From Candidatus Bathyarchaeota archaeon (lineage in GTDB: Archaea; Thermoproteota; Bathyarchaeia; Bathyarchaeales; Bathyarchaeaceae): a stretch of 12,463 bases of DNA. The stretch spans positions 1 through 12,463 of the forward strand of contig JAUWZP010000055.1 of the NCBI GenBank assembly GCA_030615265.1, read 5' to 3'. Of the stretch, positions 1 through 12,463 are shown in pieces (the stretch's first letter is position 1; the number at the start of each line of letters is the position of its first letter). Under the pieces are notes generated by a model. It was not told where the DNA came from, did not search any database, and saw only the letters and a list, made by a program, of their open reading frames with translations. The position numbers and the translations under genes are program-made.

Positions 1-1
1 G

Positions 2-18
2 GGGTTAATAATTTAAGG
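2..18 (+). promoter_or_regulatory. Partial copy R0: GGGTTAATAATTTAAGG, 85 bp upstream of R1
   Basis: A 17-bp identity with R1. The sequence diverges after AAGG. Confidence 0.4.
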
Positions 19-86
19 CGCACACAGTGAACAAAGCATTTATTGTAGGTCAATTTCTTTCTGGAATATGGTAAGAGAGAGAGTGT

Positions 87-115
87 GGGTTAATAATTTA
101 AGGAGAAAACTTCTA
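87..115 (+). promoter_or_regulatory. Conserved promoter-like motif, copy R1: GGGTTAATAATTTAAGGAGAAAACTTCTA
   Basis: 25 of 26 positions match the copy at 6323-6348. Copies R1, R3 and R4 share the 26-bp core; R0 and R5 share only the 14-17 bp TATA-like part. It contains the TATA-like AATTTAAG. Confidence 0.5.
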
Positions 116-125
116 GGCGTAGGAA

Positions 126-165
126 GGAGAATTTGTTCCTCCTTCACCACAAGTTTGAGCAGAAA
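126..165. repeat. Direct repeat DR1 with core TCACCACAAGTTTGAGCA (144-161), downstream of the Ntn-hydrolase gene
   Basis: The 18-bp core is identical to DR2 at 1159-1176, with additional flanking similarity (TT..TCC.C). Confidence 0.6.
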
Positions 166-266
166 AAAGAGGGAAGAATTCTTCAAACAGTGAAGAATGA
201 GATATTATAGTTTTTATTAAAAACCCTAAATAGAATAGGGAGAAAAAATGGAGAATGTCGTTCCTC

Positions 267-1079
267 TCACAACATGCGCTCGAATTCTTCGTATTCTCCT
301 CGATATTTTTTCTGTTGTATCCATTTGAAGCCATCATGGTGAGTTATGATAGCAATATCAATATCACCGCCAACATTTGGAACCATTGTAGCAAATCTTT
401 GGTAATCTTTTGTGGTGCGAATTAGAAAAACAGCGTAATCAATGGCGTCCTGCAGTGTCATTAATGCATAGTTAGGTTTAGCAATGGGAATCTCGGGGTC
501 TTTCTTCCAGAGTTTTGCAGCAACTCGTCCTTCTCCCCCACAAGTGCAACCATAGCCTTTCGTGTGTTTTGGCTCGATTGTAATTTTCCGTCCTATCTTA
601 ACGAGAAAGGTTTTCCCTATCTTTACATCTTTCTTATCATATCCAGCAACCTGAAAACCTACAACTAGGTGTTTCTCTGGAATCTTGGAGAGAATTTTTA
701 CTTCCTTCTTAACATTGTCATGCAAATAATCCGCGAGTTTGTGCGCTACTTCCTTCACTTTTTCCTCGCCTACTATTTTTAATTTCTCAAATTCCCTTAT
801 ATGGCTCTCAACAGTTCTCCCATTCAATGCAGGGGCACCATAAACGGCGACACCAATATTACGCTTTTCAATGTTGAAAAGTTTACGTCCAAAAGGAGAA
901 CTCCCTGCAGGCATACGAATAAGCGGCAGTTTCAATTCGGATATTTTTATGTCTTCTTCGCATTTTGGACACTTTGCTCCTAAGTCTTCTACTGGAATTA
1001 TCGTTGCTAATATGGAAACTAAACTATCGGTTGCGAGAACTATGCCATCGGGTACACGAACACTTATGGTTAACGTCAA
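267..1079 (-). CDS. Ntn-hydrolase, proteasome beta / HslV-like T1 threonine peptidase with a Cys-containing insertion (CPKC...CTC). The probable start is TTG at 1079, giving an N-terminal M-T-L-T-I-S-V-R.
   Basis: The N-terminus TLTISVRVPDGIVLATDSLVS matches the HslV/beta-subunit pattern: Thr1, Asp17 and a GxxK motif about 33-35 residues in. Upstream of the TTG the only in-frame start-like codon is a CTG, whereas the track ORF extends to 1331 and would overlap the divergent promoter. A TATA-like element AAAAATATTAAGTATA (1106-1122, minus orientation) lies about 27-43 nt upstream of the TTG. The size is 270 aa against roughly 175-200 aa for HslV or beta subunits, so there is an insertion of about 70 aa. 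Confidence 0.5.
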   Translation of the reverse strand: MTLTISVRVPDGIVLATDSLVSILATIIPVEDLGAKCPKCEEDIKISELKLPLIRMPAGSSPFGRKLFNIEKRNIGVAVYGAPALNGRTVESHIREFEKLKIVGEEKVKEVAHKLADYLHDNVKKEVKILSKIPEKHLVVGFQVAGYDKKDVKIGKTFLVKIGRKITIEPKHTKGYGCTCGGEGRVAAKLWKKDPEIPIAKPNYALMTLQDAIDYAVFLIRTTKDYQRFATMVPNVGGDIDIAIITHHDGFKWIQQKKYRGEYEEFERML

Positions 1080-1143
1080 TTTAACTCCCCTGTTGTATTG
1101 TTGTGTATACTTAATATTTTTTGCTCCAGAAAACAGGAAAAAG

Positions 1144-1180
1144 GAAAGGTTTTCTCCCTCACCACAAGTTTGAGCACACG
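1144..1180. repeat. Direct repeat DR2 with core TCACCACAAGTTTGAGCA (1159-1176), in the divergent promoter region between the Ntn-hydrolase and RHH genes
   Basis: Identical 18-bp core, same orientation as DR1. It lies about 35-75 nt upstream of the Ntn-hydrolase TATA element. Confidence 0.6.
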
Positions 1181-1237
1181 CACAGCAAAGTTTATATTGT
1201 GGTTTCACAGTTCCTTCGTGTATGGCTGTGAATACCC

Positions 1238-1801
1238 ATGCCAAACGTGACAATAAGTGTTCCTGAAAAGCTGAAAATTGAGATGGATAAGATTCCTGAG
1301 GTTCGTTGGTCTGAAATATGTCGTGACGCAATTTCTCGGTATATCGCGCAAAGGAAGAACCCTACTCCCAGAATTGAATTAGAACTTCGCAATGCAACAT
1401 TAACTCATAGCGACATTAGAACTGGATATCCAACATTGGCAATGTCCCTAAGGATACATAACAAAATGGATTCAGAAATCACTGTTGATAGAATAATAGT
1501 ATCTGATGCTGTGTTCATTCCACCAGGTGGGGGTCATAGTTATGGAATTGGTACCGCCTACGACCTCCATAAGAGAAATATCAACCCACATGCTGTTGGC
1601 GGAGCAATGGTTTTTCTGACTTTACCAAAAGACAAAATTGACGATCTTAAAGACGCTTTTGACTCAACGTTCGATTGGCGCGCCAGCGGTACTGTGTACG
1701 TTGAAGGTTTCAAGAATGAGTATCGAACAGATATGCACGCAAGGATTCCGATTGACGATTGGAAATCAGTTGTGAAAAAAGTTTTGAAAGAACCAAAATA
1801 G
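1238..1801 (+). CDS. Ribbon-helix-helix (CopG/antitoxin-like) DNA-binding domain protein with a C-terminal domain of about 140 aa of unknown function
   Basis: The N-terminus VTISVPEKLKIEMDKIPEVRWSEICRDAISRYI has the typical RHH pattern: a beta-strand followed by two helices, with a conserved W-S-E. The ATG start is at 1238. The gene is divergent from the Ntn-hydrolase gene and they share a 160-bp promoter region. Confidence 0.55.
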   Translation: MPNVTISVPEKLKIEMDKIPEVRWSEICRDAISRYIAQRKNPTPRIELELRNATLTHSDIRTGYPTLAMSLRIHNKMDSEITVDRIIVSDAVFIPPGGGHSYGIGTAYDLHKRNINPHAVGGAMVFLTLPKDKIDDLKDAFDSTFDWRASGTVYVEGFKNEYRTDMHARIPIDDWKSVVKKVLKEPK

Positions 1802-1811
1802 AGTTGGTAAA

Positions 1812-1896
1812 GGCGAGGTGAGCGAAGCACGGTGTTAGCACGCAATCGGCTCACGTCAATCCAGACGTTGGGTCGATTCGCTTAACCTCGCCGCCA
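1812..1896 (+). repeat. Imperfect long inverted repeat or stem, not a canonical tRNA. GGCGAGG-t-GAGCGAA pairs with TTCGCTT-aa-CCTCGCC around a 50-nt interior, and the element ends in GCCA.
   Basis: The pairing was seen directly: 7 bp, then a 1-nt/2-nt asymmetric internal loop, then 7 bp. An interior mini-hairpin CGTC-aatcca-GACG is also present. It lies between convergent genes (1238..1801 + and 1925..2494 -). The 7-bp outer stem plus a discriminator-like G and CCA looks like a tRNA acceptor end, but no D, anticodon or T arms can be drawn. Confidence 0.3.
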
Positions 1897-1924
1897 ACTA
1901 CAAGATCATAGATAGCGTAGTTTA

Positions 1925-2494
1925 TTAGTTCTTCTCCTTGCTAAAATCCATGATTGAGTAGATTTCGGGGTATCGTTGCCTCAGCTTTGCTCGTGCCATT
2001 AAGCGTGTCACCTTGTCAGGGGAATAAGCTTCGTCAATCAGCCTTCTCAATCTAAGCTCTCTATAGGATTTAGCGATTGCGTGAGCGGTTTCAGCAGTAA
2101 TTGTTTTTCCTGCAATCCAAGCATATTTCGCTCCTAACTTGATTCCTTTACCGATTCCTGTACCAATGATTTTTAGCGCTTTTCCTAGGTCGGGGTCTAT
2201 GACTTCAACTGAGATAGGATTTCTCGAGTCCGTCTTCTCTTCAAAAGCCTCGTCCAATGCGTCAGAATAATTTCTTGCGATAACCACAATGCTTTCACCG
2301 TCTCCTTTACGCTTAGAATACTGGAAATTGATAGTGAAGGATTTTGGCTTGTCGGTCTTAATCAATTTCTTACGAGTGAAAGTAGGAGTAGTTCTTGTGC
2401 CTTTCCCACGGACATAATCGCTTACTCGGTCACCAGTTTTCTTTTGATAACTTCTTACATGGTGCCTAATTGGGGATTTACGCTTCTTTGCCAT
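1925..2494 (-). CDS. Hypothetical protein with a very basic N-terminus (MAKKRKSPIRHHVRSYQKK...) and a Gly-rich IGTGIGKGIKLGAKYAWIAGK segment
   Basis: A long ORF with an ATG start at 2494. A TATA-like TTAATATAATTATGG sits immediately upstream on the minus strand. I do not recognise a conserved family. Its neighbourhood with a tyrosine integrase suggests mobile-element cargo. Confidence 0.5.
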   Translation of the reverse strand: MAKKRKSPIRHHVRSYQKKTGDRVSDYVRGKGTRTTPTFTRKKLIKTDKPKSFTINFQYSKRKGDGESIVVIARNYSDALDEAFEEKTDSRNPISVEVIDPDLGKALKIIGTGIGKGIKLGAKYAWIAGKTITAETAHAIAKSYRELRLRRLIDEAYSPDKVTRLMARAKLRQRYPEIYSIMDFSKEKN

Positions 2495-2846
2495 TTAGCT
2501 CATTTCCATAATTATATTAAGAGTTTAACCTTAAAATAGTATTTGAGGTAAAGCATTCGGGAGAACGTGCTTTGTCTCAATGCCGTAGGAGTGAAGGTTC
2601 GGGTGTTTGACTTCATTCCTGCGGTAAAAGTGAATGGAGTAGAAGAAAATTCCTTTCAAAGAAGGAGTATATCACGAAAAGCGACATGGACGAGGTGTAA
2701 GATTCCGTTTCTGTAAAAAATGTGGTAGGCGATTAAAGGAAGGAGAGAAGATTTACAAAAGGATAAGTTACAATAAGGCTTCTTTAACTCCATGCCGCAT
2801 AATCGGTTATTACTGCGAGGAATGCCGCGATGCTCTTTACATTTAG

Positions 2847-3320
2847 GTGAGAGTGAGTGAAGTGGTAGGAAAGAAAGGAATGAAACAATCAGGACATAGA
2901 ACCTTCACATATAAGGAACGGAAATTCAACTCGTTCGGTAGAGGTGGACTATTAGACTACTTTACGCCTAAATCAAGCCCAGAAGAAATAAGGTATTCCT
3001 TTAGGACAAAGCATAATCATGAAATGTCCCTATCAGAAGCTAAGTTAGTTGCTAGGAGTGTAGATGAAAAGTTGGCTGAAGATAACAGAGAATTCAGAAC
3101 TGATATGGTCGATACTATACTACACTTTGCTAATGTCTTTGACGTATCCAACATCGAAGCATTCGCACTGACATGCTACTTATACAAGGCTATAGGTGCA
3201 AAAGAGAACCTTACAAAGAGAGAACTCGGGGATATTACTGAGAAGACTATACGAGAAGCGAATAAACTCCGGGAGATGAATTGGGATTCCTTTATGAGAA
3301 TCCTTAAGGAAGTTTCCTGA
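2847..3320 (+). CDS. Hypothetical protein. The start is uncertain: GTG at 2847 or ATG at 2880.
   Basis: A 157-codon ORF. A purine-rich stretch lies before ATG 2880. It is followed by the G6-C-T7 terminator-like element at 3393-3408. No recognisable family. Confidence 0.45.
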   Translation: MRVSEVVGKKGMKQSGHRTFTYKERKFNSFGRGGLLDYFTPKSSPEEIRYSFRTKHNHEMSLSEAKLVARSVDEKLAEDNREFRTDMVDTILHFANVFDVSNIEAFALTCYLYKAIGAKENLTKRELGDITEKTIREANKLREMNWDSFMRILKEVS

Positions 3321-3392
3321 CGCTACCGTATAAGCCCTCCAAGAATCGAGAAAAACCAAAATGGGGTACTATCTACTAGATATATTATTTAA

Positions 3393-3408
3393 GGGGGGCT
3401 TTTTTTGA
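3393..3408 (+). terminator. AAGGGGGGCTTTTTTT, a G-run followed by a T7 tract, giving an archaeal oligo-T terminator
   Basis: The T7 tract lies about 75 nt downstream of the 2847..3320 stop. Archaeal RNA polymerase terminates at T-runs of 5 or more. Confidence 0.4.
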
Positions 3409-3472
3409 TCTTTTCATTCAAAACATTATTATCCCAATTGTCTATATCTATAATTTGTCAAGACATAGTTGA

Positions 3473-4315
3473 ATGGGAAGTTGTATCATGGCTATCGCAA
3501 TGCGTGACAAGATGCGTGAGTACTATCAAAAGGAGAAAGAGAAGGACATAGGTACCGATGTGTCAAAGCCAGAAGTGCTTGAAAAAGATAGGGGAGAAAG
3601 GCGTACTTCTATAAGGCGTGGTGGTGTAGGGAATCCTTACGTGGGGAAAGGTGGAAGGTACAAAGACAAAGTAGAGACAGTTTTAACAGAAGTAGAGTAC
3701 GAGCATTATTTGAAGAACGCTAAACAACTAGAGACAAAGAGACTAGATCAGAAAGAGAATCCTTCATATCCTTTCGATTATCGTGTTCAAGTCTTCAGCA
3801 TAAGTGGACTTCTAGCAATGTTATACTACACTGGATTACGAATAACAGAAATCGTAGGAGATGTTCCACACAAATACTTTTTGAAAGATGGCACAGAGAA
3901 ATGGACTAAAGATTTTCACGGACTACGAAAAATGGACTTAAGTATCAAAGACGATCTTTTGAAAGTTGACGTTAAGGAAGCACGTAAGCACGGTAAGAGA
4001 GAAGAGCCGTTATGGATTCCTTTAGATAAGTTAGGAGTAGATTCAATTGTTGAAGTGTGGGAATCTTCAAAAATTCCTGAAGATAGGATTTTTCCAATAA
4101 CGAAGTGGTTAAGTTGGAAATTGATCTCATTAGTTACAGAAGGAAGACTTTATCCACATTTCTTCCGTTTGAATAGAGCAACAGAATTTGCGAATAATCC
4201 AGAAACCTCTCTTCTTGAACTAAAAAAATGGTTTGCGTGGGCTGACGCGAGAACTGCTAGTTTCTATATGGGTAGAGCAGGACGTACAACAAAGAAGATG
4301 GCGGATAGGTTGTAA
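3473..4315 (+). CDS. Tyrosine recombinase / phage-type integrase
   Basis: Motifs of the catalytic domain are present. LLAMLYYTGLRITEI is the box I Arg. HFFRLNRATEF is the HxxR motif. WADARTASFYMGRAG aligns with lambda Int GHKSDTMASQY, with Trp in place of the second His as in Cre, followed by the catalytic Tyr. A TATA-like TATATCTATAATTTG lies upstream. Confidence 0.8.
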   Translation: MGSCIMAIAMRDKMREYYQKEKEKDIGTDVSKPEVLEKDRGERRTSIRRGGVGNPYVGKGGRYKDKVETVLTEVEYEHYLKNAKQLETKRLDQKENPSYPFDYRVQVFSISGLLAMLYYTGLRITEIVGDVPHKYFLKDGTEKWTKDFHGLRKMDLSIKDDLLKVDVKEARKHGKREEPLWIPLDKLGVDSIVEVWESSKIPEDRIFPITKWLSWKLISLVTEGRLYPHFFRLNRATEFANNPETSLLELKKWFAWADARTASFYMGRAGRTTKKMADRL

Positions 4316-4529
4316 ATCATGGGAGAGTTGGTGAGTATCTGGAAGCATGTGAAAGAGCGCGTGGAATCCCTTCTTGAGTCTGCGGGCACACCGCCATTAT
4401 CTGCAGCGCTTTGTTAGGCTTTGTTATTATGGTCTAAAGTTATGACTACATGCATGCATGCCTTCTGATTTAGCACACTTAATTTAAATAACTCCACCAA
4501 CTTCATGGTGTTTTATAAGGAGGGTTCGA

Positions 4530-5090
4530 ATGCCCAGAGTTGAAGCTTCTATCAGAATCGAAAACGTCGTGGGCACTGCCACGTTAAATCAGAGGATTGA
4601 CCTAAACGCAGTGGTGAAAGGTTTTCCGGATGTTGATTACCGTCCAGAACGGTTTCCGGGACTGGTCTTCAGATTAAAGAGACCCAAAACGGCTATCCTA
4701 ATCTTCAATTCAGGGAAGATGGTTTGCACCGGAGCCAAGTCCGAGAAGAGGGCAAAGAAGGCAATTAATAAAGTTGTAAAGGAACTGAAGAAGAGCGGGG
4801 TCATCATCCTTGGCAAACCCGAAATCAAAATAGTGAACATGGTTGCGTCAGCGAGTTTAGGAGGATTGATAGACCTTGAGAAGTCAGCCTACTCGCTTAA
4901 GAGAAGCATGTATGAACCCGAACAGTTTCCTGGTCTCATCTACCGAATGGATGAACCAAAAGTTGTTATTCTTCTCTTCACAAGTGGGAAACTTGTTTGC
5001 ACAGGAGCCACGAAGGAAGAAGACGTCCACGAAGCGGTTGCCAAACTTCATAAGAAACTCGAGGAAGAAGACCTGATATACTACGAGTAA
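4530..5090 (+). CDS. tbp: TATA-box binding protein (archaeal TBP) with two direct repeats and an acidic C-terminal tail
   Basis: ENVVGTATLNQRIDLNAVV...RPERFPGLVFRLKRPKTAILIFNSGKMVCTGAKSE, followed by the second repeat NMVASASLGGLIDLEKSAY...EPEQFPGLIYRMDEPKVVILLFTSGKLVCTGATKEE. RBS AAGGAGGG is 7 nt before the ATG. TATA TTAATTTAAATA is at 4481-4492. Confidence 0.93.
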   Translation: MPRVEASIRIENVVGTATLNQRIDLNAVVKGFPDVDYRPERFPGLVFRLKRPKTAILIFNSGKMVCTGAKSEKRAKKAINKVVKELKKSGVIILGKPEIKIVNMVASASLGGLIDLEKSAYSLKRSMYEPEQFPGLIYRMDEPKVVILLFTSGKLVCTGATKEEDVHEAVAKLHKKLEEEDLIYYE

Positions 5091-5169
5091 ATGTGATTGA
5101 AACCCCATGCGCGCAAGTGCAAGTTATATATAGTCCAAAGAGAAAGTAAAGCCAAAACGAACAAAAGAG

Positions 5170-5382
5170 GTGAAATACGTGACAAAGGGTACAGTGGCGA
5201 AATGGCTCGGCGAGAGAGGCTACGGGTTCATTAAATGCGAAGATGGCAAAGAAATCTTTGTTCATAAGTCGGATATCCAGGGCAAAAGCAGTCTCAAAGA
5301 AGGAGAAAAAGTAGAGTTCGAAGTGACAGAAGGCACAGGTAGAGGACCGAGAGCCGTCAAAGTTAAACCGATTTCTGAATAA
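5170..5382 (+). CDS. csp: Cold-shock domain protein (CspA family). The start is GTG at 5170 or, more likely, GTG at 5179, giving MTKGTVAKW.
   Basis: GTVKWF-like N-terminus [30 protein letters not shown] carries the RNP1-like GYGFI and RNP2-like FVH motifs. AGAGGTGA RBS precedes GTG 5179. TATA TTATATATAG at 5124-5133. Confidence 0.85.
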
Positions 5383-5423
5383 ATCGAGAACATTTGTCGA
5401 AGATTCAAAAATCGGTTTAAATT

Positions 5424-5440
5424 ACCGGGGTTTAATTTTT
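5424..5440 (+). terminator. CCGGGGTTTAATTTTTC, a G/C-rich segment followed by a T5 tract downstream of csp
   Basis: An oligo-T tract about 45-55 nt after the csp stop. Confidence 0.3.
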
Positions 5441-5573
5441 CTTCTGATTTGTAGATTGGTTCTACCTTTCCCTAAAGCGCGCGCAGCTTGTGTTAACTTA
5501 TATAAGCAAGAGCGTTTGTTTCTGATAAGGTCTTTCACTTGTCCCTACGCGCGCAACGTAAAGGTGAGCATGA

Positions 5574-6260
5574 ATGAGGAATAGAATATGGGCTGGAAGA
5601 GGACGTCCTAGAGGTAGCCATCGCACACGCGACATTAGAATTCTTGAGTACCTTGTAGAACTCGCTACGAAACACGGAATCACCACATGCGAATTTTTTA
5701 ACGCAATTGTAAGCGCATGGGAAAATGGAAAAGCCAAGTGTAGAGGATTAAATGTTCAATGTCGCATAAAGAAAAAAGGTCGCGCCATCTTTCTCATAAC
5801 AAAAGGCTACACGGTGGTCGCTCAATTTCCAATACACGAAAACATCCTCAAAGAAACTGACCCGCTCAAAGGGTTTGACTATGTGCGTGAACGCGTTAGA
5901 CGCGTTTCCGAAATGAAAGAAAGGAAAAGGCTTGACCTTAGCCATCTAAGCATCAAAGATTTGAAGGCTGGAATGAAGAAAATTCACCTGAAAGCTCGAG
6001 TCACCGAAATTTCAAAGCCAAAACTAGTCTTAACGAGGTCCAACGATTACGCCGTCTTTGCCAACGCAACGCTTTCTGACGAAACCAGTACAATCAAGCT
6101 GACTCTATGGAACGGACGCGTCAACATGGTTTCCATCAACGACATGGTTCAAATTGAAAATGCAAAGGTCATCATGTTTAGAGGTGAAAAACAGCTGAGA
6201 ACAGGAAGATACGGCAGATTGAAAGTCCTTGAAACCAATCCGATAAATGTAATTCAATAA
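5574..6260 (+). CDS. Nucleic-acid-binding protein: an N-terminal winged-helix-like region plus a C-terminal OB-fold (SSB/RPA/tRNA-anticodon-type)
   Basis: The C-terminal ~110 aa KKIHLKARVTEISKPKLV...DETSTIKLTLWNGRVNMVSINDMVQIENAKVIMFRGEKQLRTGRYGRLKV follows the OB-fold pattern seen in archaeal SSB/RPA (..DeTG.i.ltlWd.......gd.v.i.na.v.....). The N-terminal ILEYLVELATKHGITTCEFFNAIV looks like an HTH. The start is ambiguous: ATG at 5574 or 5588. Confidence 0.5.
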   Translation: MRNRIWAGRGRPRGSHRTRDIRILEYLVELATKHGITTCEFFNAIVSAWENGKAKCRGLNVQCRIKKKGRAIFLITKGYTVVAQFPIHENILKETDPLKGFDYVRERVRRVSEMKERKRLDLSHLSIKDLKAGMKKIHLKARVTEISKPKLVLTRSNDYAVFANATLSDETSTIKLTLWNGRVNMVSINDMVQIENAKVIMFRGEKQLRTGRYGRLKVLETNPINVIQ

Positions 6261-6317
6261 GCTCATTGCTAACTCACGGTCCTGAGCGCGCGCATTTTAT
6301 TAATATAGGATTTTTCC

Positions 6318-6348
6318 CATCCTTAATAATTTAAGGAGAAAAGTTCTA
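6318..6348 (+). promoter_or_regulatory. Conserved promoter-like motif, copy R3: CCTTAATAATTTAAGGAGAAAAGTTCTA, 65-71 nt upstream of the zinc-ribbon gene
   Basis: Its position relative to the gene start and its TATA-like core support a promoter role. Confidence 0.55.
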
Positions 6349-6412
6349 TACCCACGAGGTTTGGAGAGCAATTAAACTAATTAATATCTAACATGTTAAA
6401 TGATTTGAAGTG

Positions 6413-6685
6413 ATGATTATGGAAGGAACACAAGGTCAAATCTGTCAAAGTTGTGGAATGCCAATGCGGAAGAACGAAGATTTTGGAACAAACACAGATG
6501 GAAGCAAGAATGAAGAGTACTGCCATTATTGCTATAAAGAGGGAAGATTTACAGATGAAGGAATTACAATGGAAGAGAAAATCAAGAAAAACATAGAAAT
6601 GGCTACGAAAGTGGGAATGGCAGAAGAAGAAGCAAGAGAAATGGCAAACAGTATCATTCCAAAGCTCAAGAGATGGAAGAAGTAA
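6413..6685 (+). CDS. Small zinc-ribbon protein (CQSCGMPM...DFGTNTDGS.NEEYCHYCYKEG.F, a putative-zinc-ribbon family seen in methanogens and Firmicutes)
   Basis: A characteristic CxxCGMP...DGS...YCxYCY motif with a C-terminal acidic/basic helix. The track ORF starts with GTG at 6410; ATG codons lie at 6413 and 6419. The conserved promoter-like motif lies 65-70 nt upstream. Confidence 0.6.
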   Translation: MIMEGTQGQICQSCGMPMRKNEDFGTNTDGSKNEEYCHYCYKEGRFTDEGITMEEKIKKNIEMATKVGMAEEEAREMANSIIPKLKRWKK

Positions 6686-6791
6686 ATACTAACAATGTTC
6701 ATCTTATCACAATTAGGTTGTTCAGGTTCTACATACATCTTCTTTAGATAACACCAATACCTGTTCTCAGAGAGGAATAGGTTTTAACAGT

Positions 6792-6983
6792 TTACTCTTC
6801 AGAAGCTTCCTTCCACTTTTCAACTGTTAGTTTGTCATCTCCAGCTTTGAAAGATATCTTCAGCTTCATTGAGGTTTTAGTTTTGAATGGAAACATGCTG
6901 TCTTCTGCTAAGTCTAATGGAACATATAGTAAGTACTTGCCATCTTTTCTTCTGAATAATCTTCCTCTTCCTTCATTAACCAT
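6792..6983 (-). CDS. Small protein of 63 aa, MVNEGRGRLFRRKDGKYLLYVPLDLAED..., possibly an AbrB/swapped-hairpin-like DNA binder
   Basis: The track ORF starts at a TTG at 7028. An internal ATG at 6983 is preceded by AAGGAG at the right spacing. The GRGRLFRRKDGKYLLYVPLDLAED segment weakly resembles AbrB/MazE-type hairpins. Confidence 0.4.
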   Translation of the reverse strand: MVNEGRGRLFRRKDGKYLLYVPLDLAEDSMFPFKTKTSMKLKISFKAGDDKLTVEKWKEASEE

Positions 6984-7226
6984 TGTCAAGTCTCCTTTCT
7001 CAGATTTTGAGCCATTCTTATTGTTCAAGTATACATAAAGGTTTGCTCTTTCCCTCTTCTTTTACAATTAGTTCTTTTGTTTCTGCTATAACCTTTCCGC
7101 TTTTCTCACTTTAGAACTCAGTACGATTATTCATAACTTCTGTGCATGCATGTGTTTTATTAGTGCTGAGCAAATGGGAATCCAAAACATTCCTTCTTGA
7201 GTTCATGAGTTATTAATGTTTAAGTA

Positions 7227-7248
7227 TTCTTAATCCTTAAATTATTAA
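7227..7248 (-). promoter_or_regulatory. Partial motif copy R5: CCTTAAATTATTAA, matching 14 bp of the core
   Basis: Matches the TATA-like half of the motif on the minus orientation, roughly 200-240 nt upstream of the 6792..6983 gene. Confidence 0.3.
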
Positions 7249-7327
7249 TGCAACTTGAAAGGAAATGATGATAAGATGAATTGACCATGTGAGAGACTTT
7301 CTCTGTCTGACAATCAACCACAGTAGG

Positions 7328-7657
7328 CTAATCTGGATAATATGTTGGTGGTTTTATGAGAAAGGAAGCAGAGAACAAAACAATGGATAGAATGAGAGCA
7401 AAGATTCCTATAGAAAATGCGAGTATCATGGTCTTCTTCAGATTTTCTTCTGCTCCAACACCTGAGTTGAGTAACATTACTGCCAAAAGTGTTACAAGGA
7501 AGGAGATATTCGCTATGGTGGCTGAAATGAGCATAACGGTCCTTATGGCTTGGGGTATCCCAAAAGGTAGAATGGATGCAAGAGTCCAAGCACCACTAAC
7601 GAACAACATCAGAAGTGACATGAGAACCAACCAAACTGGCGGTCTTTGCTCTATCAC
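7328..7657 (-). CDS. Small integral membrane protein with about 3 TM helices
   Basis: A hydrophobic 109-aa ORF with a GTG start at 7657. The conserved promoter-like motif lies 70 nt upstream, in matching orientation, at 7727-7754. Confidence 0.5.
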   Translation of the reverse strand: MIEQRPPVWLVLMSLLMLFVSGAWTLASILPFGIPQAIRTVMLISATIANISFLVTLLAVMLLNSGVGAEENLKKTMILAFSIGIFALILSIVLFSASFLIKPPTYYPD

Positions 7658-7726
7658 GAGTTTACCACATTTTTGTGAATAGAGAAACTAAGCATTAAAC
7701 CTTGTGCTTTCCGTTCTAACGAGATA

Positions 7727-7754
7727 TAGAACTTTTCTCCTTAAATTATTAACC
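7727..7754 (-). promoter_or_regulatory. Conserved promoter-like motif, copy R4, in inverted orientation: TAGAACTTTTCTCCTTAAATTATTAACC
   Basis: It is the reverse complement of R1 with 27 of 28 positions matching. It lies 70 nt upstream of the GTG start of the minus-strand membrane-protein gene, and also in the divergent region with the wHTH regulator. Confidence 0.55.
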
Positions 7755-7853
7755 AAACCCAAACCAAAAGATGAATAGAGAAACTGTATGCCAAATTCTT
7801 AGCTGGAATTCTGAAAGGATAAATAACTCATACCCAACACATGAGAAACGGGT

Positions 7854-8180
7854 TTGCCCAACATGCGGAGGTCAAAACTGGAAACCCATATTGACATTCT
7901 TGAAGCCCTAGCTCGACGGGGACCGTTAATGCTAACTTTTATCATGCATGAGACTCACATAAGCTACAGCCTTCTGAATCAATACTTGAACTTTCTAATC
8001 CAACACGACCTCGTTGAAGACCAAACACCGCACAAGAAAAGGCATGGAGCTGAGGCTGTTTACGCAATTACTGAAAGAGGTAGAATTGTCCTAGGATACT
8101 TCAAGAAGCTAAATACTGCATTCCAAGTAGTTGAGGAAGCAAAAAAGACCACACCGTTGATGCATATAACACGTAGTTAG
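7854..8180 (+). CDS. Winged helix-turn-helix transcriptional regulator
   Basis: LETHIDILEALARRGPLMLTFIMHETHISYSLLNQYLNFLIQHDLVE...AVYAITERGRIVL shows the helix-turn-helix plus wing pattern of small archaeal wHTH regulators. Confidence 0.6.
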   Translation: MPNMRRSKLETHIDILEALARRGPLMLTFIMHETHISYSLLNQYLNFLIQHDLVEDQTPHKKRHGAEAVYAITERGRIVLGYFKKLNTAFQVVEEAKKTTPLMHITRS

Positions 8181-8437
8181 GCATTGTCTGGTTGCTGGTG
8201 GACTTTACTATGAAGACGCCAAACTATTCTACAAAAACGGCGAGCATCTGATATAATAAGGCCTACTGAAGAATTGAATATCAAGCAAGATGAAGTAAGA
8301 CACTAAAGAATCGTTGCGTTTAGCGTAGAACAAACCCCTCAGGCTATGCTATTTGGGTATATTTCTTCATCATAACTAACCTTAAACCAGCCAACCGGAG
8401 ACATGGTCTCGGATGTTATAGCAAAAGAGGCTTCTCC

Positions 8438-8551
8438 ATGATCCAGAAGATATATCACGGCATTCCGTTGCATGTTTGCCAGTCTTGCGGTTGGCGTTGG
8501 AACAGTTTTGAAGCCAGAAAATGCCCGAAATGCGGAAACGAACTTTTATGA
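8438..8551 (+). CDS. 37-aa zinc-ribbon peptide, MIQKIYHGIPLHVCQSCGWRWNSFEARKCPKCGNELL
   Basis: Two CxxC pairs 13 residues apart. AAGAGG lies 8 nt upstream of the ATG. It is below the ORF-track length threshold. Confidence 0.4.
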   Translation: MIQKIYHGIPLHVCQSCGWRWNSFEARKCPKCGNELL

Positions 8552-8563
8552 ATTATTGATTGG

Positions 8564-8637
8564 AAAAAAAGGGGAGTTTGCGGGGAAAATCGAGAGATAT
8601 CTCCAAGGTGAGTAGGGGTTCAAACCCGTGGTTGCAT
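8564..8637 (+). repeat. Copy A of a ~65-nt structured repeat: A7, then GGGGAG-TTTGCGGGG...ATCTCC, then AAGGTG, then GGGG-TTCAAA-CCC
   Basis: Aligns with copies B and C (see findings). On the minus strand it lies immediately 3' of the ICMT-family stop codon and ends in a T7 run. Confidence 0.5.
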
Positions 8638-8638
8638 A

Positions 8639-9199
8639 TTAAATGAATCTTGGTACTTCTTTGCAGTAGTCATCGTATTCTTCTTTGAATTGCTCTCTTA
8701 GCCAAGGTTCTTCAATGAAAGGAGTGAGTAGAAACCAGATGTTACCTATGATGCCCGTGACAAGTGCATAGAAAGAATTGAAGAGTAGTATAGTTCCTGA
8801 AAAGAATAGAACAACCGCAACATACTGTGGATTTCTTGATTATCTGTAAGGGCCTTTAGTAATCAATTTTCCCTTCAAGCCCAACGACGTGTTAATGGTT
8901 AAAGTTCGCAAAGCCCAGAGGAAAACAATCGCCCCCGCAACCATAAAGATGAAAGCGAAAACAAAGCGCAACCAATGAGTTAGAAAAAGTGCGTTCCAGT
9001 CAAGAAAACCTAAAACAAGAAAGCAGAATATGGAACTTTCTGTTAGAAGGTGTGTGTACCAGTATTGCCATGAGCCTTTCTTCGGAGGAGGCCATACTCT
9101 ATACTTTGGGTAAAGCAACGACACTATGAGACCCCCACCTAACAGAAATTCAAGAACAAGAGTTACCGTAAATAATGCGAATTCGATAGTCATATCCAT
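8639..9199 (-). pseudogene. Isoprenylcysteine carboxyl methyltransferase (ICMT) / phospholipid methyltransferase family gene interrupted by an in-frame TAA at 8840-8842
   Basis: The translation reads ...LITKGPYR*SRNPQYVAVVLFFSG...FLLTPFIEEPWLREQFKEEYDDYCKEVPRFI in a single frame. The family motif GPYR[YF]xRHPxY and the C-terminal EExxLxxxFGxxYxxYxxxVPR are intact except that the aromatic codon (TAT/TAC) after GPYR is TAA. About 5 TM segments. Confidence 0.7.
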
Positions 9200-9280
9200 G
9201 AACAATAAGAAACTGGCACACTAATCTTTTATGCAATTTGTGTTTGCATGACAAATCAAGTTTAACATGTAAGAAGTAAA

Positions 9281-9345
9281 CAAAAAAGGGGGAGATTGGG
9301 TGATGTCTCCACGCGGTGGGGGGTTCGAATCCCCCTAGGCTTCTT
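9281..9345 (+). repeat. Copy B of the structured repeat: A6, then GGGGGAGA-ttgggtgatg-TCTCC, then ACGCGGTG, then GGGGG-TTCGAAT-CCCCC. The last part is a perfect tRNA T-arm-like hairpin.
   Basis: GGGGGTTCGAATCCCCC is a 5-bp stem with a 7-nt TTCGAAT loop, identical in form to a tRNA T arm. No acceptor, D or anticodon arm can be built around it. Confidence 0.5.
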
Positions 9346-9879
9346 TGAAGGGTGAAATGGGACCAAAACATTTTAGATACATTGACGTATATCTTAGCTC
9401 CACAAGGATGGTTAGTATGAAAGGAAAACGTAACGTTTTCACTTGCTTTCTGAAAGGTAATGTAGCCATGCATGCGTGTGTGGTGTTGTAAGTGGTGAAG
9501 GCTAAGCGAATTAAAGAGTTAGAGAAGAAATACGAGGTAGTATCTCTGATATTGGGTCCGAAAGACAAAAGTGGGTTACGAATATGCTCTGTTCCAGAAA
9601 AAAAGTTAAGGGCATTAGCGAAGTGGCATCAGGGGCACCATACTCCAAGAAAGTGGCATTTAAGCGAGGATAAAAATCACCTAATCCTTGAGTAGAAACG
9701 AGATAGTAGGTTTGTAGAGTTTTCATAAATAGAGGCGCGTAAATGTTACCCTGTGAAGGGTATGTGTGATCCCCTACTACTTGGGGATTCACACAATTCG
9801 CGCCGTTCGCTTGCCTCTGGATTTTGAGGTAATACATATCAAATTTATGAAGGAGGAATCAACATTCGGAATAAACAGA

Positions 9880-9940
9880 AAAAAATGGGGATTTGCGGGG
9901 GGCATCTCCACTGTGGGGAGGATTCAAGTCCCTCTCCGAT
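9880..9940 (+). repeat. Copy C of the structured repeat: A6-T, then GGGGAT-ttgcggggggc-ATCTCC, then ACTGTG, then GGGAGG-attcaagtc-CCTCTC
   Basis: Shares GGGGA-TTTGCGGGG with A and ATCTCCAC..GTG.GGG..TTCAAG.CCC with B. It lies 79 nt upstream of the 4Fe-4S gene start. Confidence 0.5.
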
Positions 9941-10018
9941 ATTTTCCTAGAACCAACTGGCTAAGAACAGGAAATAAATATGTGCATGCGTATGCTGAGA
10001 GTGTGGAACTGATGCGGT

Positions 10019-11086
10019 ATGACAGATGAAGTCTACGAGCAACTTGCAGATGCCTTGAATAAACTCCCTAATGGTTTTCCTAGAACTTCATCTAACGTAG
10101 AAACTAAGATTCTGGAAAAGATTTTCTCACCAGATGAGGCTAGAATAGCCAGTCAGCTTAGCGGCAACTTGGAGTCTGTTGAGGTAATAGCCAAAAAGGG
10201 GGGTCTTCCCGTTGAGGAAATTAGCTCTATCTTGACAAAAATGGCTAAGCGCGGTGTCCTATGGTTCGATAGGAAAAGTGAGAAACCACGGTTCAGACTA
10301 GCTCCCTTTATAGTTGGAATTTATGAAGCACAGTTAGAGAACATGGATCATGAACTAGCACATCTTGTTGAGCAGTATCTGGCGAATGGAGGAGCAGTCG
10401 GAATTATGAAACCCCAACCTGCTATACATCGAGTTATCCCCGCCCAAAAGGCAGTGAAGTCTGAATGGATTCTTCCCTACGATGATGTTAGAAGGATCCT
10501 TCTGACCGCCAAAAGATTTCGTCTCCGTGATTGCATCTGCCGAGTGCAGCAAGACTACATCGACCGCAAGTGTAGTTTTCCAACGAGAATGTGCCTAAGC
10601 TTCTCGTCAACTGAAAGCTCTCCCCATCCAAATGATATTTCGCAAAAAGAGGCTTTAGATATTCTCGACAAGGCTGAGGAGATTGGTTTAGTTCACACAG
10701 TCAGTAACGTAATGAAAGGCTTTGGCTATGTCTGTAACTGTTGTGGCTGTTGTTGCGGCATACTCCGTGGAATCACTGAGTTCGGGATTGCAAAATCAGT
10801 GGCTCACGCCAATTATTATGCAATGATTGATCCTGATTCGTGCCTAGGATGTGAAACGTGTATAGAACGTTGTCAAGTGCATGCGATTTCTGAACAAGAT
10901 GGAGTTGCTGTTGTGGATCGGGAGCAATGCATCGGCTGTGGACTATGTGCTACAGGATGTCCAAATAATGTGGCAAAACTTCAACGAAAGCCAGACGAGG
11001 AAATTATTGACCCCCCTATGGACTTCGCAATGTGGGAACGTGAACGCCTGCGAAATCGAGGTTTGGTCAGTAAGAAACGAAAATGA
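10019..11086 (+). CDS. 4Fe-4S dicluster (ferredoxin-type) domain protein with an additional Cys-rich CNCCGCCCG motif and an N-terminal helical domain
   Basis: Two canonical ferredoxin motifs, CLGCETCIERCQ and CIGCGLCATGCP, preceded by CNCCGCCCG. A 355-aa ORF with an ATG start. An oligo-T terminator follows. Confidence 0.8.
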   Translation: MTDEVYEQLADALNKLPNGFPRTSSNVETKILEKIFSPDEARIASQLSGNLESVEVIAKKGGLPVEEISSILTKMAKRGVLWFDRKSEKPRFRLAPFIVGIYEAQLENMDHELAHLVEQYLANGGAVGIMKPQPAIHRVIPAQKAVKSEWILPYDDVRRILLTAKRFRLRDCICRVQQDYIDRKCSFPTRMCLSFSSTESSPHPNDISQKEALDILDKAEEIGLVHTVSNVMKGFGYVCNCCGCCCGILRGITEFGIAKSVAHANYYAMIDPDSCLGCETCIERCQVHAISEQDGVAVVDREQCIGCGLCATGCPNNVAKLQRKPDEEIIDPPMDFAMWERERLRNRGLVSKKRK

Positions 11087-11146
11087 GATCGTACAGAATC
11101 ATGCATGCGTACATAATCTACTAGAGCTTTTAAGCAAACTTCTCTA

Positions 11147-11160
11147 AATCTTCTTTTTTA
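11147..11160 (+). terminator. ATCTTCTTTTTTAG, a T6 tract about 65 nt after the 4Fe-4S gene stop
   Basis: An oligo-T run on the coding strand downstream of a convincing gene. Confidence 0.4.
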
Positions 11161-11332
11161 GGTGATAGAATGAGAAGAATCAAAACCTTGAAATGCATGC
11201 ATGAGGGACCATCATCCTTGAAACAACCATTGGGGCAGACTACCGATTCTCAATCCCTAAGTCGATACGGCATATGCTTATACCAGAAGAGCCGATACGA
11301 ATAACGATTGAGAAGATAGGGGGCGAGCACAA

Positions 11333-11500
11333 GTGAAACTTACGCCAAAAGCAAAAGCCACTCTGTTATTCTTGATATTCGCTCTGGCTTACTTAGTTTC
11401 GCCGTGGGATTTGCTGCCTTTCACCTTCTTCGAGGACATTGCGCTCGTAGCTATAGCTTTAATAGTTTGGCTTATTGTTGCAATAGTTGAGTGGAGGTGA
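11333..11500 (+). CDS. Small membrane protein of the YkvA/DUF1232-like family (55 aa, GTG start)
   Basis: MKLTPKAKATLLFLIFALAYLVSPWDLLPFTFFEDIALVAIALIVWLIVAIVEWR carries the SP-DL(I/L)P-F...DD/ED signature of DUF1232. AGGGGG lies about 10 nt upstream. Its stop is 1 nt before the SPFH-gene ATG, so the two are translationally coupled. Confidence 0.45.
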   Translation: MKLTPKAKATLLFLIFALAYLVSPWDLLPFTFFEDIALVAIALIVWLIVAIVEWR

Positions 11501-11501
11501 T

Positions 11502-12458
11502 ATGTTGAACATGAAAAGACCGCTTATGTATGGTGGCTTGGCCATCTTGGTTTTTGCAATCATCTTTGCCGCATTGTGGTCAGCAAGTGCTTGGATTGTC
11601 GTAGGAGTCGGTGATGCAGTTCTAATTGTTGATGCTACCACAGGAACTATAAGCGACCCAATACTCGGACCATCGGCAGGCTTTCTTGTTGACGGCTTCA
11701 AGCGGATGGTTAGATTGCAGTATCCAGTTTACATTTACTACCAGATTGATAGCGTTGGAATGTGGACTGAGTGGACACGAGAGGGGCAAACCTTGACTGA
11801 AGCATCGAGAGGGGAATACCCAGCGATTATGGGTATCTCAAAAGACGGATTGGAAATCGAAGTTGACGTCCTAGTAAGATGGTCACTAAATCCTGACCAC
11901 CTAAAAGAGCTGTATATGAACTATCCAAACAAGAATTGGAAAACTGTCACCATCGCATCAATCATCCGAGAAGAGACTCGACACACAATATCAAACTTCA
12001 CCGCAATTGAGGTGATAGAAAAACGAGCAGCCATCGAGGAGGCGCTAAACCAAGCGATACGCCAAGGCCTGCTAGGAGAAACTAGCTTGGCAGGTGCAAT
12101 TGTTGAATCCACACTCGAAGTGGATTTGAGAGACATTGACCCTTCGATGGAGTTCATTAGGGCAATAGAAGCAAAATTGGCAGCGGAACAGGCGCAGATA
12201 CAGGCACAATTTGAGTACGAAAGGGCATTAATTCTTGCAAGAGCAGAATCTGAGTCGATGATAATTGTGGCCAATGGTACCCGGGAAGCAATCGATACAA
12301 TAGTTTCTATAACTGGAGAGACAAACTCGACACGAATAGCTGAGCTATACCTAACCGTGGAAGCGTTAAAAACAATAGCTCCGAACGCAAAGAACTTCAT
12401 AGTCGTTTGGGGTGGCGGAGAAATCCCCATAGTTTACCCCATCCAAGATGGCGCTTAG
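11502..12458 (+). CDS. SPFH/band-7 (stomatin/prohibitin-like) domain membrane protein
   Basis: An N-terminal TM helix is followed by VVGVGDAVLIVDATTG...EIEVDVLVRW...IREETRHTISNFTAIEVIEKRAAIEEALNQAIRQ...FIRAIEAKLAAEQAQIQAQFEYERALILARAESE, the PHB-domain pattern with its coiled-coil tail. The track ORF starts at TTG 11487. ATG 11502 is preceded by GGAGGTGA. Confidence 0.8.
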   Translation: MLNMKRPLMYGGLAILVFAIIFAALWSASAWIVVGVGDAVLIVDATTGTISDPILGPSAGFLVDGFKRMVRLQYPVYIYYQIDSVGMWTEWTREGQTLTEASRGEYPAIMGISKDGLEIEVDVLVRWSLNPDHLKELYMNYPNKNWKTVTIASIIREETRHTISNFTAIEVIEKRAAIEEALNQAIRQGLLGETSLAGAIVESTLEVDLRDIDPSMEFIRAIEAKLAAEQAQIQAQFEYERALILARAESESMIIVANGTREAIDTIVSITGETNSTRIAELYLTVEALKTIAPNAKNFIVVWGGGEIPIVYPIQDGA

Positions 12459-12463
12459 CCTGT

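Follow-up and report, generated by a model that had tools for sequence, protein, structure and literature searches.

A near-identical intergenic block at dozens of unrelated genes in Bathyarchaeia, probably a compact core-promoter cassette

Divergent transcription has been described in two archaeal species, Thermococcus kodakarensis and Haloferax volcanii, under the title 'Widespread divergent transcription from prokaryotic promoters', and bidirectional promoters of T. kodakarensis share one TATA box, with start sites 52 bp apart (Warman et al., bioRxiv 10.1101/2020.01.31.928960). Putative mobile promoters, in turn, are similar non-coding stretches found upstream of non-homologous genes, the criterion being an alignment over at least 50 nt with an identity of 80% or higher (Matus-Garcia, Nijveen and van Passel 2012, NAR 40:10032, PMC3488235). 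Here, a short motif is analysed that occurs in several copies on 12,463 nt of DNA from a Candidatus Bathyarchaeota archaeon (contig JAUWZP010000055.1 of assembly GCA_030615265.1, positions 1 to 12,463; "the window" denotes this whole stretch). Bathyarchaeia are abundant, largely uncultured sediment archaea and, to our knowledge, almost nothing is known of their transcription signals. A literature search on the sequence itself and on promoter motifs or repeats of Bathyarchaeia returned nothing relevant. Shared-TATA bidirectional promoters and promoter propagation are each known; what the literature searched does not describe is their union in one near-invariant block of ~45 bp whose arms can be swapped and which is amplified in a lineage of uncultured archaea.

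The motif is probably the invariant half of a compact core-promoter cassette with one TATA box, which would act in both directions in one of its versions (class A) and would have been propagated and shuffled among genes. It belongs to a repeat family with sharp edges that is placed between genes, has gene starts and ribosome-binding sites arranged on two sides and swaps its partner genes at the edges. A 29-mer consensus from a first-pass annotation was searched in the window with up to three mismatches and 200 shuffles as control. It matched at 87–115 (+, no mismatch), 6320–6348 (+, three mismatches) and 7727–7755 (−, one mismatch) and in none of the shuffles, the chance expectation being 0. 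All three mismatches at 6320–6348 are the leading GGG. The repetition of the core was thus confirmed, while this GGG lies outside the conserved unit, and the core common to the full copies and the family is TTAATAATTTAAGGAGAAAA(G/C)TTCTA(T). A repeat finder reported 6323–6350 and 7725–7752 as complementary in 28 of 28 positions. Altogether, the five copies claimed by the annotation were recovered, three of them full (90–115 +, 6323–6349 + and 7726–7752 −) and two partial (5–18 + and 7234–7248 −).

The family was collected by scanning metagenome contigs for an exact 24-mer and a genome collection for an exact 20-mer; its statistics were drawn from the matches listed, and contigs and genomes were labelled L001 and so on. 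At least 120 metagenome contigs contained the 24-mer, and nearly all of them came from sediments. The 20-mer occurred in Bathyarchaeia genomes of several species (L001, L005, L009, L019, L021, L022, L034 and L035), comprising three complete chromosomes and several metagenome-assembled genomes. After removal of identical contexts, 121 instances were left among the matches listed. The metagenome Ga0114921 contributed 34 contigs with the motif in at least 27 unrelated contexts, again among the matches listed, and one contig from it (L159) is 100% identical to window 1–4718; contig L098 is 99.6% identical to window 7726–11078. When a 26-mer was scanned over 450 kb, 72, 46, 11, 12, 1, 10, 7 and 15 sites were found with zero to seven mismatches, respectively, and the shuffled control had none with six or fewer. 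Outside the Bathyarchaeia, the 20-mer matched bacterial ribosome-binding regions without the family flanks. Many of these were matches in Saccharibacteria, where the 20-mer falls into the ribosome-binding region of one conserved gene whose product begins with MLAIRMQRNGR and which we take to be rpsP; they were rejected as family members, the identity being a coincidence. The exception is a contig labelled Gemmatimonadota (L002, CAYFXF010000164.1) with a full class A block; it equals the Bathyarchaeia-type contig L087 over the stretch compared, 25 nt ahead of the core and 40 nt behind it, and is probably mis-binned. Three matches on viral contigs covered the 20-mer only, the family flanks being absent save for a class-C-like upstream sequence in L182.

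Conservation has sharp edges at about −17 and +27 relative to the core (ttTCATTTcAAGTTGCA, followed by TTAATAATTTAAGGAGAAAA and GTTCTAt), and the information content fell to zero outside this interval in 107 non-identical instances. GTTCTA(T) and the class A arm are conserved although they lie outside the search pattern, and the common block measures 44–47 nt. Three interchangeable versions of the sequence upstream of the core were distinguished. Class A carries TTTCATTTCAAGTTGCA at −17 to −1 (tabulated as (t)TTCATTTCAAGTTGCA); it makes up ~80 of the 107 instances and is also seen in the probably decayed window copy at 7234–7265. Class B reads GCGCGC..TTATTAATATAGGATTTTTCC(C/T)ATC(C/A) and has a second TATA-like box 26 nt upstream. 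It is represented by window 6283–6322 and by L035, L078, L097, L103, L147 and L158, where ~36–40 nt of the element precede the core likewise; class B copies align over 54–84 nt at 90–96%, and the class B version measures ~62–66 nt. Class C consists of G/T simple repeats, namely (GT)n, (GGTT)n, (GGTTT)n and GAGAGAGTGTGGG, and was found at the window copies 90 and 7752 as well as in L021, L072, L075, L088, L108, L144, L154 and others. Within the core, TTAATAATTTAA, an A/T-rich TATA box of ~8 bp, is invariant in all copies, which were fetched by the exact core. It resembles TATA-like boxes of other window genes, e.g. TTAATTTAAATAA before the TBP gene. The TATA box is flanked by two AAGTT sequences, one on either side, which are ~27 bp apart and in direct orientation. 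A proposed subfamily signature (TA to AG at core positions 5–6, linked with A to T at position 20) was rejected, as it was not significant without search-selected copies.

The tracts that abut the class C TATA box are microsatellite-like, with (GGTT)12, (GGTTT)3 and (GT)4–5 as examples (L021 1440–1487, window 7753–7772, L154, L088, L072, L108 and L144). In this they resemble bacterial phase-variable simple-repeat promoters, and changes in repeat length could switch the promoter. No length polymorphism was seen between near-identical loci, which allowed no test of it, and nothing points to actual switching.

Genes were called with a simple caller of non-overlapping open reading frames (ORFs), and motif-free gaps of at least 40 nt from the same loci were used as control. 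Gaps with the motif were divergent in 48, tandem in 30 and convergent in 10 cases (55%, 34% and 11%), against 63, 213 and 101 motif-free gaps (17%, 56% and 27%; chi-square p = 5e-13). Class A has close gene starts on both sides and class C on the forward side only; 33 of 61 resolved class A contexts are divergent. Credible starts with a Shine-Dalgarno sequence and ATG begin ~21 nt beyond the core on either side, and gene starts lie ~21–100 nt after the 20-nt core with a mode of 30–39. Shine-Dalgarno 5-mers, which were counted independently of ORFs, reached 3.06 per 100 nt on the reverse side of class A compared to 0.12 in the antisense control, with a peak 20–30 nt past the reverse edge. The forward side of class A showed a weaker peak (1.44 versus 0.36 per 100 nt), and the other classes had a forward peak only (2.73 per 100 nt). 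The shortest divergent ATG-to-ATG spacers that hold the block are ~70–76 bp long (L091, L127 and L174) and therefore offer room for one TATA box only. TATA-to-ATG distances in the family (37–55 nt) equal those of ordinary promoters in the window such as the ones of the TBP and cold-shock domain (CSD) genes.

The promoter-like behaviour that the first-pass annotation had described, i.e. an intergenic, A/T-rich, TATA-like motif enriched beside gene starts, was borne out, as was a conservation tighter than that of ordinary TFB-recognition element (BRE) and TATA sequences. Its placement 65–70 nt before gene starts in gene-matched orientation held for two of the five copies (6323 and 7752) and failed for those at 5–18, 90–115 and 7234–7248. 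Downstream of the 6323 copy, 61 nt separate the core end at 6348 from a GTG at 6410 and 70 nt from an ATG at 6419; for the 7752 copy, it is 69 nt from the core end at 7727 to a GTG at 7657. With 61–70 nt after the 26-mer, both leaders are unusually long for the family and stand at the far end of its range, and a fixed-length leader was accordingly abandoned. A consistent gene-matched orientation did not survive either, given that in tandem contexts 14 motifs face the downstream start and 18 face away from it, and that class A is flanked by starts on both sides. The one-way pattern had been noticed because the full copies in the window are all of class B or C, without a full class A copy.

From the sequence data we infer TBP binding, start-site positions, bidirectional firing and a copying mechanism as follows. 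The A/T-rich TATA box TTAATAAT.., centred near core position 4–5 (+4.5), would lie between two conserved arms. The forward arm ..TTTAAGGAGAAAAGTTCTAT (to +27) would fill the space from TATA box to start, and transcription is predicted to start ~4–5 nt past GTTCTAT, near +31. The class A arm TTTCATTTCAAGTTGCA would have the same role for a second start on the other strand, near −21. One TATA box could thus give rise to two divergent transcripts with predicted start sites ~52 bp apart, an interval with which the block length (−17 to +27) is compatible. In classes B and C, replacement of the reverse arm by a second TATA-like box or by G/T microsatellites would leave a one-way promoter. The block has probably been spread and homogenised by copying or by recombination between copies ("promoter propagation") and would provide a ready-made promoter, mostly for small, poorly conserved genes.

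The central A/T-rich TATA-like box between divergent genes is a likeness to the known shared-TATA promoters of archaea, and the ~45-bp block fits their start-to-start interval of ~52 bp. The same applies to the symmetry of gene starts and Shine-Dalgarno signals on both sides of class A, the transcription starts being predicted here. In contrast to T. kodakarensis and H. volcanii, where only TATA box and BRE are conserved and the remainder is individual to each promoter, the Bathyarchaeia block keeps its entire interval nearly unchanged at dozens of loci and shows no CGAAA-type BRE.

The AAGGAG within the core could also mean that the motif acts as RNA, as a conserved 5' leader, ribosome-binding site, small RNA or terminator. 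The core could be transcribed from the class B TATA-like box 26 nt upstream, and 150 nt without an ORF follow copy 90–115. This explanation is highly improbable, since no start codon is found at ribosome-binding distance after AAGGAG, real pairs of Shine-Dalgarno sequence and ATG being placed further downstream, and since classes A and C have no upstream TATA box. Depletion of the motif in convergent gaps speaks against a terminator, and the ORF-free 111 nt after copy 90–115 fold no better than shuffles (z = −1.2). Rfam and tRNA scans of the window plus 848 nt at the L159 end (including 429 nt left of the window) returned no RNA family. They gave only a T-arm-like fragment and, away from the motif, a sub-threshold CRISPR-DR8 match at 5061–5103 (23.3 bits versus a gathering score of 39) that overlaps no motif copy. 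A CRISPR (clustered regularly interspaced short palindromic repeat) array was rejected with regard to the irregular spacings of 85, 6233 and ~1400 nt and the mixed strands of the copies.

The block is not bound to particular genes. Among the matches listed, the 69 downstream proteins fell into 56 clusters and the 74 upstream proteins into 65. Pfam searches on 35 downstream proteins gave 14 different families, none of them common to all, and most proteins had no match; Band_7, beta-helix, Zn ribbons, NERD, a solute-binding protein (SBP), PEMT and many orphans were among the downstream genes. A regulon with coherent function is unlikely because the downstream families are so diverse, and it was rejected as no common function or Pfam family was recognised among the 35 proteins. 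In related loci, homology to the window begins or ends precisely at the core. L141 (96.5%) and L106 (97.5%) match the window from 6323 rightwards and have class A arms and other genes upstream, whereas L176 (85%) and L098 match it from 7726 rightwards, the other side of L176 being different DNA. The same zinc-ribbon gene is preceded by a class B arm in the window and by one of class A in L141 and L106, and homologous methyltransferase genes (PEMT/ICMT-type) carry arms of class A, B or C. The first ~28 nt of the zinc-ribbon leader resemble all of the 5' untranslated region (5' UTR) that precedes the ATG of the methyltransferase gene in L147, which is suggestive of a promoter copied together with its 5' UTR before another gene.

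Copying of or recombination between copies is proposed because of these breaks at the core, the arm swaps and the 5' UTR remnant. Propagation is further deduced because near-identity over ~45 bp at dozens of unrelated genes exceeds what contacts with TBP and TFB need. A mobile promoter cassette, which the first-pass annotation had offered as one of two options, fits at least 56 unrelated gene families and homology breaks at the edges better than ordinary drift. The likeness to putative mobile promoters is found in a nearly constant sequence before non-homologous genes, within a genome and across relatives, and in some copies that carry adjoining 5' UTR. Measured against their length criterion of 50 nt, the common block is slightly too short with 44–47 nt, while class B has ~62–66 nt. 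It differs from them in being archaeal and in often serving two genes; the source being metagenomic, copies were counted over contigs.

The same conservation would be expected if the block were mainly an operator or recognition site, bound by a global regulator between TATA box and start (GGAGAAAAGTTCTA) or by a dedicated pair of TBP and TFB paralogues. It extends far past the TATA box and is kept across Bathyarchaeia species, the AAGTT repeat flanks the TATA box at a spacing of ~27 bp, and the TBP gene of the window adjoins an integrase-like ORF. Archaeal repressors typically bind between TATA box and start site, and a specific regulator site in GGAGAAAASTTCTA, as the first-pass annotation had suggested, is conceivable; no function is common to the downstream genes. 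Since the block would remain a promoter in this case, both readings overlap, and its conservation would reflect selection for binding and not copying. We consider this unlikely. The target genes lack a common function and mostly a Pfam match, no candidate factor was identified, and selection for binding leaves the sharp edges, the swappable arms, the breaks at the core and the 5' UTR-like remnants unexplained.

Several points weigh against a propagated bidirectional promoter. Strong selection by a DNA-binding factor could account for the conservation with no copying involved. Geometry is the basis on which promoter activity, start sites and bidirectionality were deduced, and the instances were fetched by an exact core, for which reason conservation within the core is not judgeable from them. 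Unseeded extra copies were fewer and more degenerate (~30–45 at two to seven mismatches in 450 kb). In each of the three complete Bathyarchaeia chromosomes sampled, the exact 20-mer occurs just once or twice; a high number of copies, counted here over metagenome contigs, is therefore specific to certain lineages. The position directly upstream of the TATA box does not hold a conserved purine-rich BRE of the common types, whichever direction is considered. Class A has GTTGCA there, class B CCATCC and class C G/T repeats, and the other strand reads CTTTTCTCC, none of which matches cRnaAnt or CGAAA; the TFB of Bathyarchaeia may prefer another BRE. Finally, 10–11 instances lie in convergent gaps, among them window copy 90–115, and 16 of 122 were scored as inside a gene by the crude ORF caller.

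The inverted copies 6323 and 7752 had also been read as terminal inverted repeats of a 1.4-kb mobile element, a MITE (miniature inverted-repeat transposable element) or composite transposon with the zinc-ribbon and membrane genes. The arms are indeed complementary in 28 of 28 positions and 1374 nt apart. There is, however, neither a target-site duplication (the flanks are ..CCATCC and CCAAACC..) nor a transposase between them, and as promoters of convergent genes the arms point inwards. L141 and L106 keep the zinc-ribbon gene and the core with different DNA outside and beyond, and L176 has the core and the winged helix-turn-helix (wHTH) side without the membrane gene. Because relatives keep one side only, segment 6323–7752 has not come or gone as a whole. 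Where other loci hold several copies, these mostly share one orientation (L035, L141, L001, L104, L119 and L128). A transposon is scarcely credible. The block resembles MITEs and REP/REPIN-like repeats as a short, multi-copy, intergenic and sharp-edged sequence that breaks metagenome assemblies. Unlike these, it has no terminal inverted repeats within the unit, no hairpin and no target-site duplication, and it shows a strong bias to divergent gaps and a fixed distance from start codons.

Breaks of homology at the block edges and small cassette-like genes in co-oriented arrays, with one copy each, would also suit a site-specific recombination site that bounds exchangeable gene cassettes in an integron-like or shufflon-like way. 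A tyrosine-recombinase-like ORF is present at window 3473–4315, with motifs recognised by eye and no Pfam match. Integron attC sites, which sit at the 3' end of a cassette, are imperfect palindromes and carry R''/L''-L'/R' boxes (RYYYAAC...GTTRRRY). The block failed this comparison, as it contains neither an internal dyad nor an imperfect palindrome like that of attC, lacks R'/R'' boxes (GTTRRRY is matched neither by GTTCTAT nor by GTTGCAT) and is located 5' of genes, on both strands. No recombinase was seen in the motif loci inspected, though no systematic search was made, and homologous recombination between dispersed repeats gives breaks at the edges, too. Such a site is very unlikely, if slightly less so than a transposon or an RNA element.

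Of the readings weighed, the promoter cassette thus accounts best for the family. A bolder version of it is doubtful: a self-propagating "plug-and-play" promoter, ~45 bp between divergent starts, that would be copied or gene-converted, perhaps with a dedicated TBP/TFB variant, and switched between two-way and one-way action by arm exchange. If true, it would be a mechanism for wiring newly acquired or orphan genes into expression that is undescribed in archaea. Already the near-identical promoter block at dozens of unrelated genes would give a handle on promoter architecture in Bathyarchaeia and be a natural case of archaeal promoter reuse. It predicts shared-TATA bidirectional initiation, which can be checked in metatranscriptomes, and genetic tools of the future could use it as a candidate for a strong, portable promoter. 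As a repeat, it fragments assemblies of these genomes and helps to spot mis-binned contigs.

The motif copies of the window and their neighbouring features are compiled in Table 1. The window is archaeal and has genes for TBP, a cold-shock protein, an OB-fold protein similar to Ssb, a winged-helix protein (HTH_45), a protein with a ferredoxin domain and a Band_7 protein.

Table 1. Copies of the motif in the window and adjacent features.
Feature	Position	Strand	Sequence and remarks
Partial copy 1	1..18	+	TATA part TTAATAATTTAAGG at 5–18, then unrelated sequence CGCACACAG
Class C upstream element, copy 2	75..89	+	GAGAGAGAGTGTGGG, purine/T simple repeat, abuts core
Full core copy	90..115	+	TTAATAATTTAAGGAGAAAACTTCTA
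Class B upstream element	6283..6322	+	GCGCGCGC box and second TATA-like box TTATTAATATAGGATTTTTCCCATCC
Full core copy	6323..6349	+	TTAATAATTTAAGGAGAAAAGTTCTAT, upstream of Zn_ribbon_2 gene
Leader of zinc-ribbon gene	6350..6409	+	Long; conserved with L141 and L106
Zn_ribbon_2 gene	6410..6685	+	PF12674, E 4e-30; putative forward target of copy 6323
Partial copy, probably decayed	7234..7265	−	Class A element TTTCCTTTCAAGTTGCA (7249–7265) and TTAATAATTTAAGGA (7234–7248), then diverges
Small membrane-protein ORF	7328..7657	−	No Pfam match; putative forward target of copy 7752
Full core copy	7726..7752	−	Reverse complement of TTAATAATTTAAGGAGAAAAGTTCTAT; near-identical contig L098 starts exactly here
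Class C upstream element	7753..7772	−	(GGTTT)n-type microsatellite; motif strand reads ATCTTTTGGTTTGGGTTTGG
Divergent side of copy 7752	7771..8180	+	46-aa CPxCG ORF (7771–7911); winged-helix gene (HTH_45; ORF 7854–8180)

The G-run of the first partial copy extends leftwards in L159 as tttttttttgggggggggg. This copy is followed by the next one at 90–115 and not directly by a gene start, and copy 90–115 faces the 3' end of the convergent gene 267–1079 (−) across the ORF-free 150 nt. The probably decayed copy at 7234–7265 lies directly after the stop of the membrane gene, with more than 200 nt to the next minus-strand ORF. The start of the membrane ORF is uncertain and may be the GTG at 7657 or a downstream ATG.

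Further repeats are found in the window. TCACCACAAGTTTGAGCA occurs at window 143–161 and 1158–1176, and CACGCACAGCAAAGTTTATATTGTGG at 1177–1205, in the promoter region of the gene at 1238, recurs at 19–50 right after the partial motif copy. The order of the two modules is permuted between both places, and the promoter regions around them look like mosaics of short modules. GCGCGC boxes are present seven times in the window compared to 0.7 expected (5109, 5477–5484, 5549, 6286–6293 and 1678). Six of the seven are intergenic, and most are located 10–20 nt upstream of TATA-like boxes (CSD and OB-fold genes, class B arm); in many loci, GCGCGC, GCGTGC or GCATGC boxes also follow the motif at 10–20 nt. 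They may represent an initiator or a regulator site. The palindrome TGCATGCA was found three times (4451, 7143 and 11194; 0.18 expected), with GCATGC variants at 7953, 9466, 9985 and 11100 and three further palindromes in the 429 nt left of the window (L159 4730–4970). Most of those checked are intergenic and near promoters, while the variant at 7953 is inside the wHTH ORF.

Three related elements of ~70–85 nt (8556–8640, 9276–9345 and 9871–9945) consist of an A-run, a GGGGAG..ATCTCC hairpin and a tRNA T-arm-like GGGGGTTCGAATCCCCC, and L154 has two partial matches to them. ARAGORN detected no tRNA in these elements, the sole Rfam match was to a tmRNA T-arm, and they folded no better than shuffles. 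They could be tRNA-derived repeats or remnants of attachment sites. Another repeat of ~70–90 nt, ..AAACTTATCACAATTAGGTTGTTCAGGTTCTACATACATCTTCTTTAGATAACACCAATAC.., lies just after the zinc-ribbon gene (6700–6790) and recurs at 88–98% identity in unrelated contexts (L079, L086, L111 and L124, partly L141); its minus strand could encode the micro-ORF MYVEPEQPNCDKFK.

The membrane methyltransferase-like gene at ~8640–9205 (−), with the GPYR.SRNPQY motif of the PEMT/ICMT type, has an in-frame TAA at 8838–8840, where the 99.6% identical L098 has TAT (Tyr). The TAA goes back to a nonsense mutation, to strain variation or to an error in sequencing. A block of orphan genes without Pfam matches (1925–4315) adjoins the TBP gene and ends in an ORF of 280 aa with tyrosine-recombinase-like motifs by eye (GLRITE, HFFR and a C-terminal Tyr); it may be an integrated element. 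At ~2650–2845, a reading frame that looks like a zinc ribbon has no standard start codon. The genomes of this lineage are rich in dispersed intergenic repeats. On the 3.9-kb contig L141, an intergenic repeat of ~100 nt, tacgatgataggcaaaagaaaatgtatcattctaat.., occurs twice (2443–2550 and 3498–3600), one copy after a degenerate motif copy and the other after a CATGCATGCATG box.

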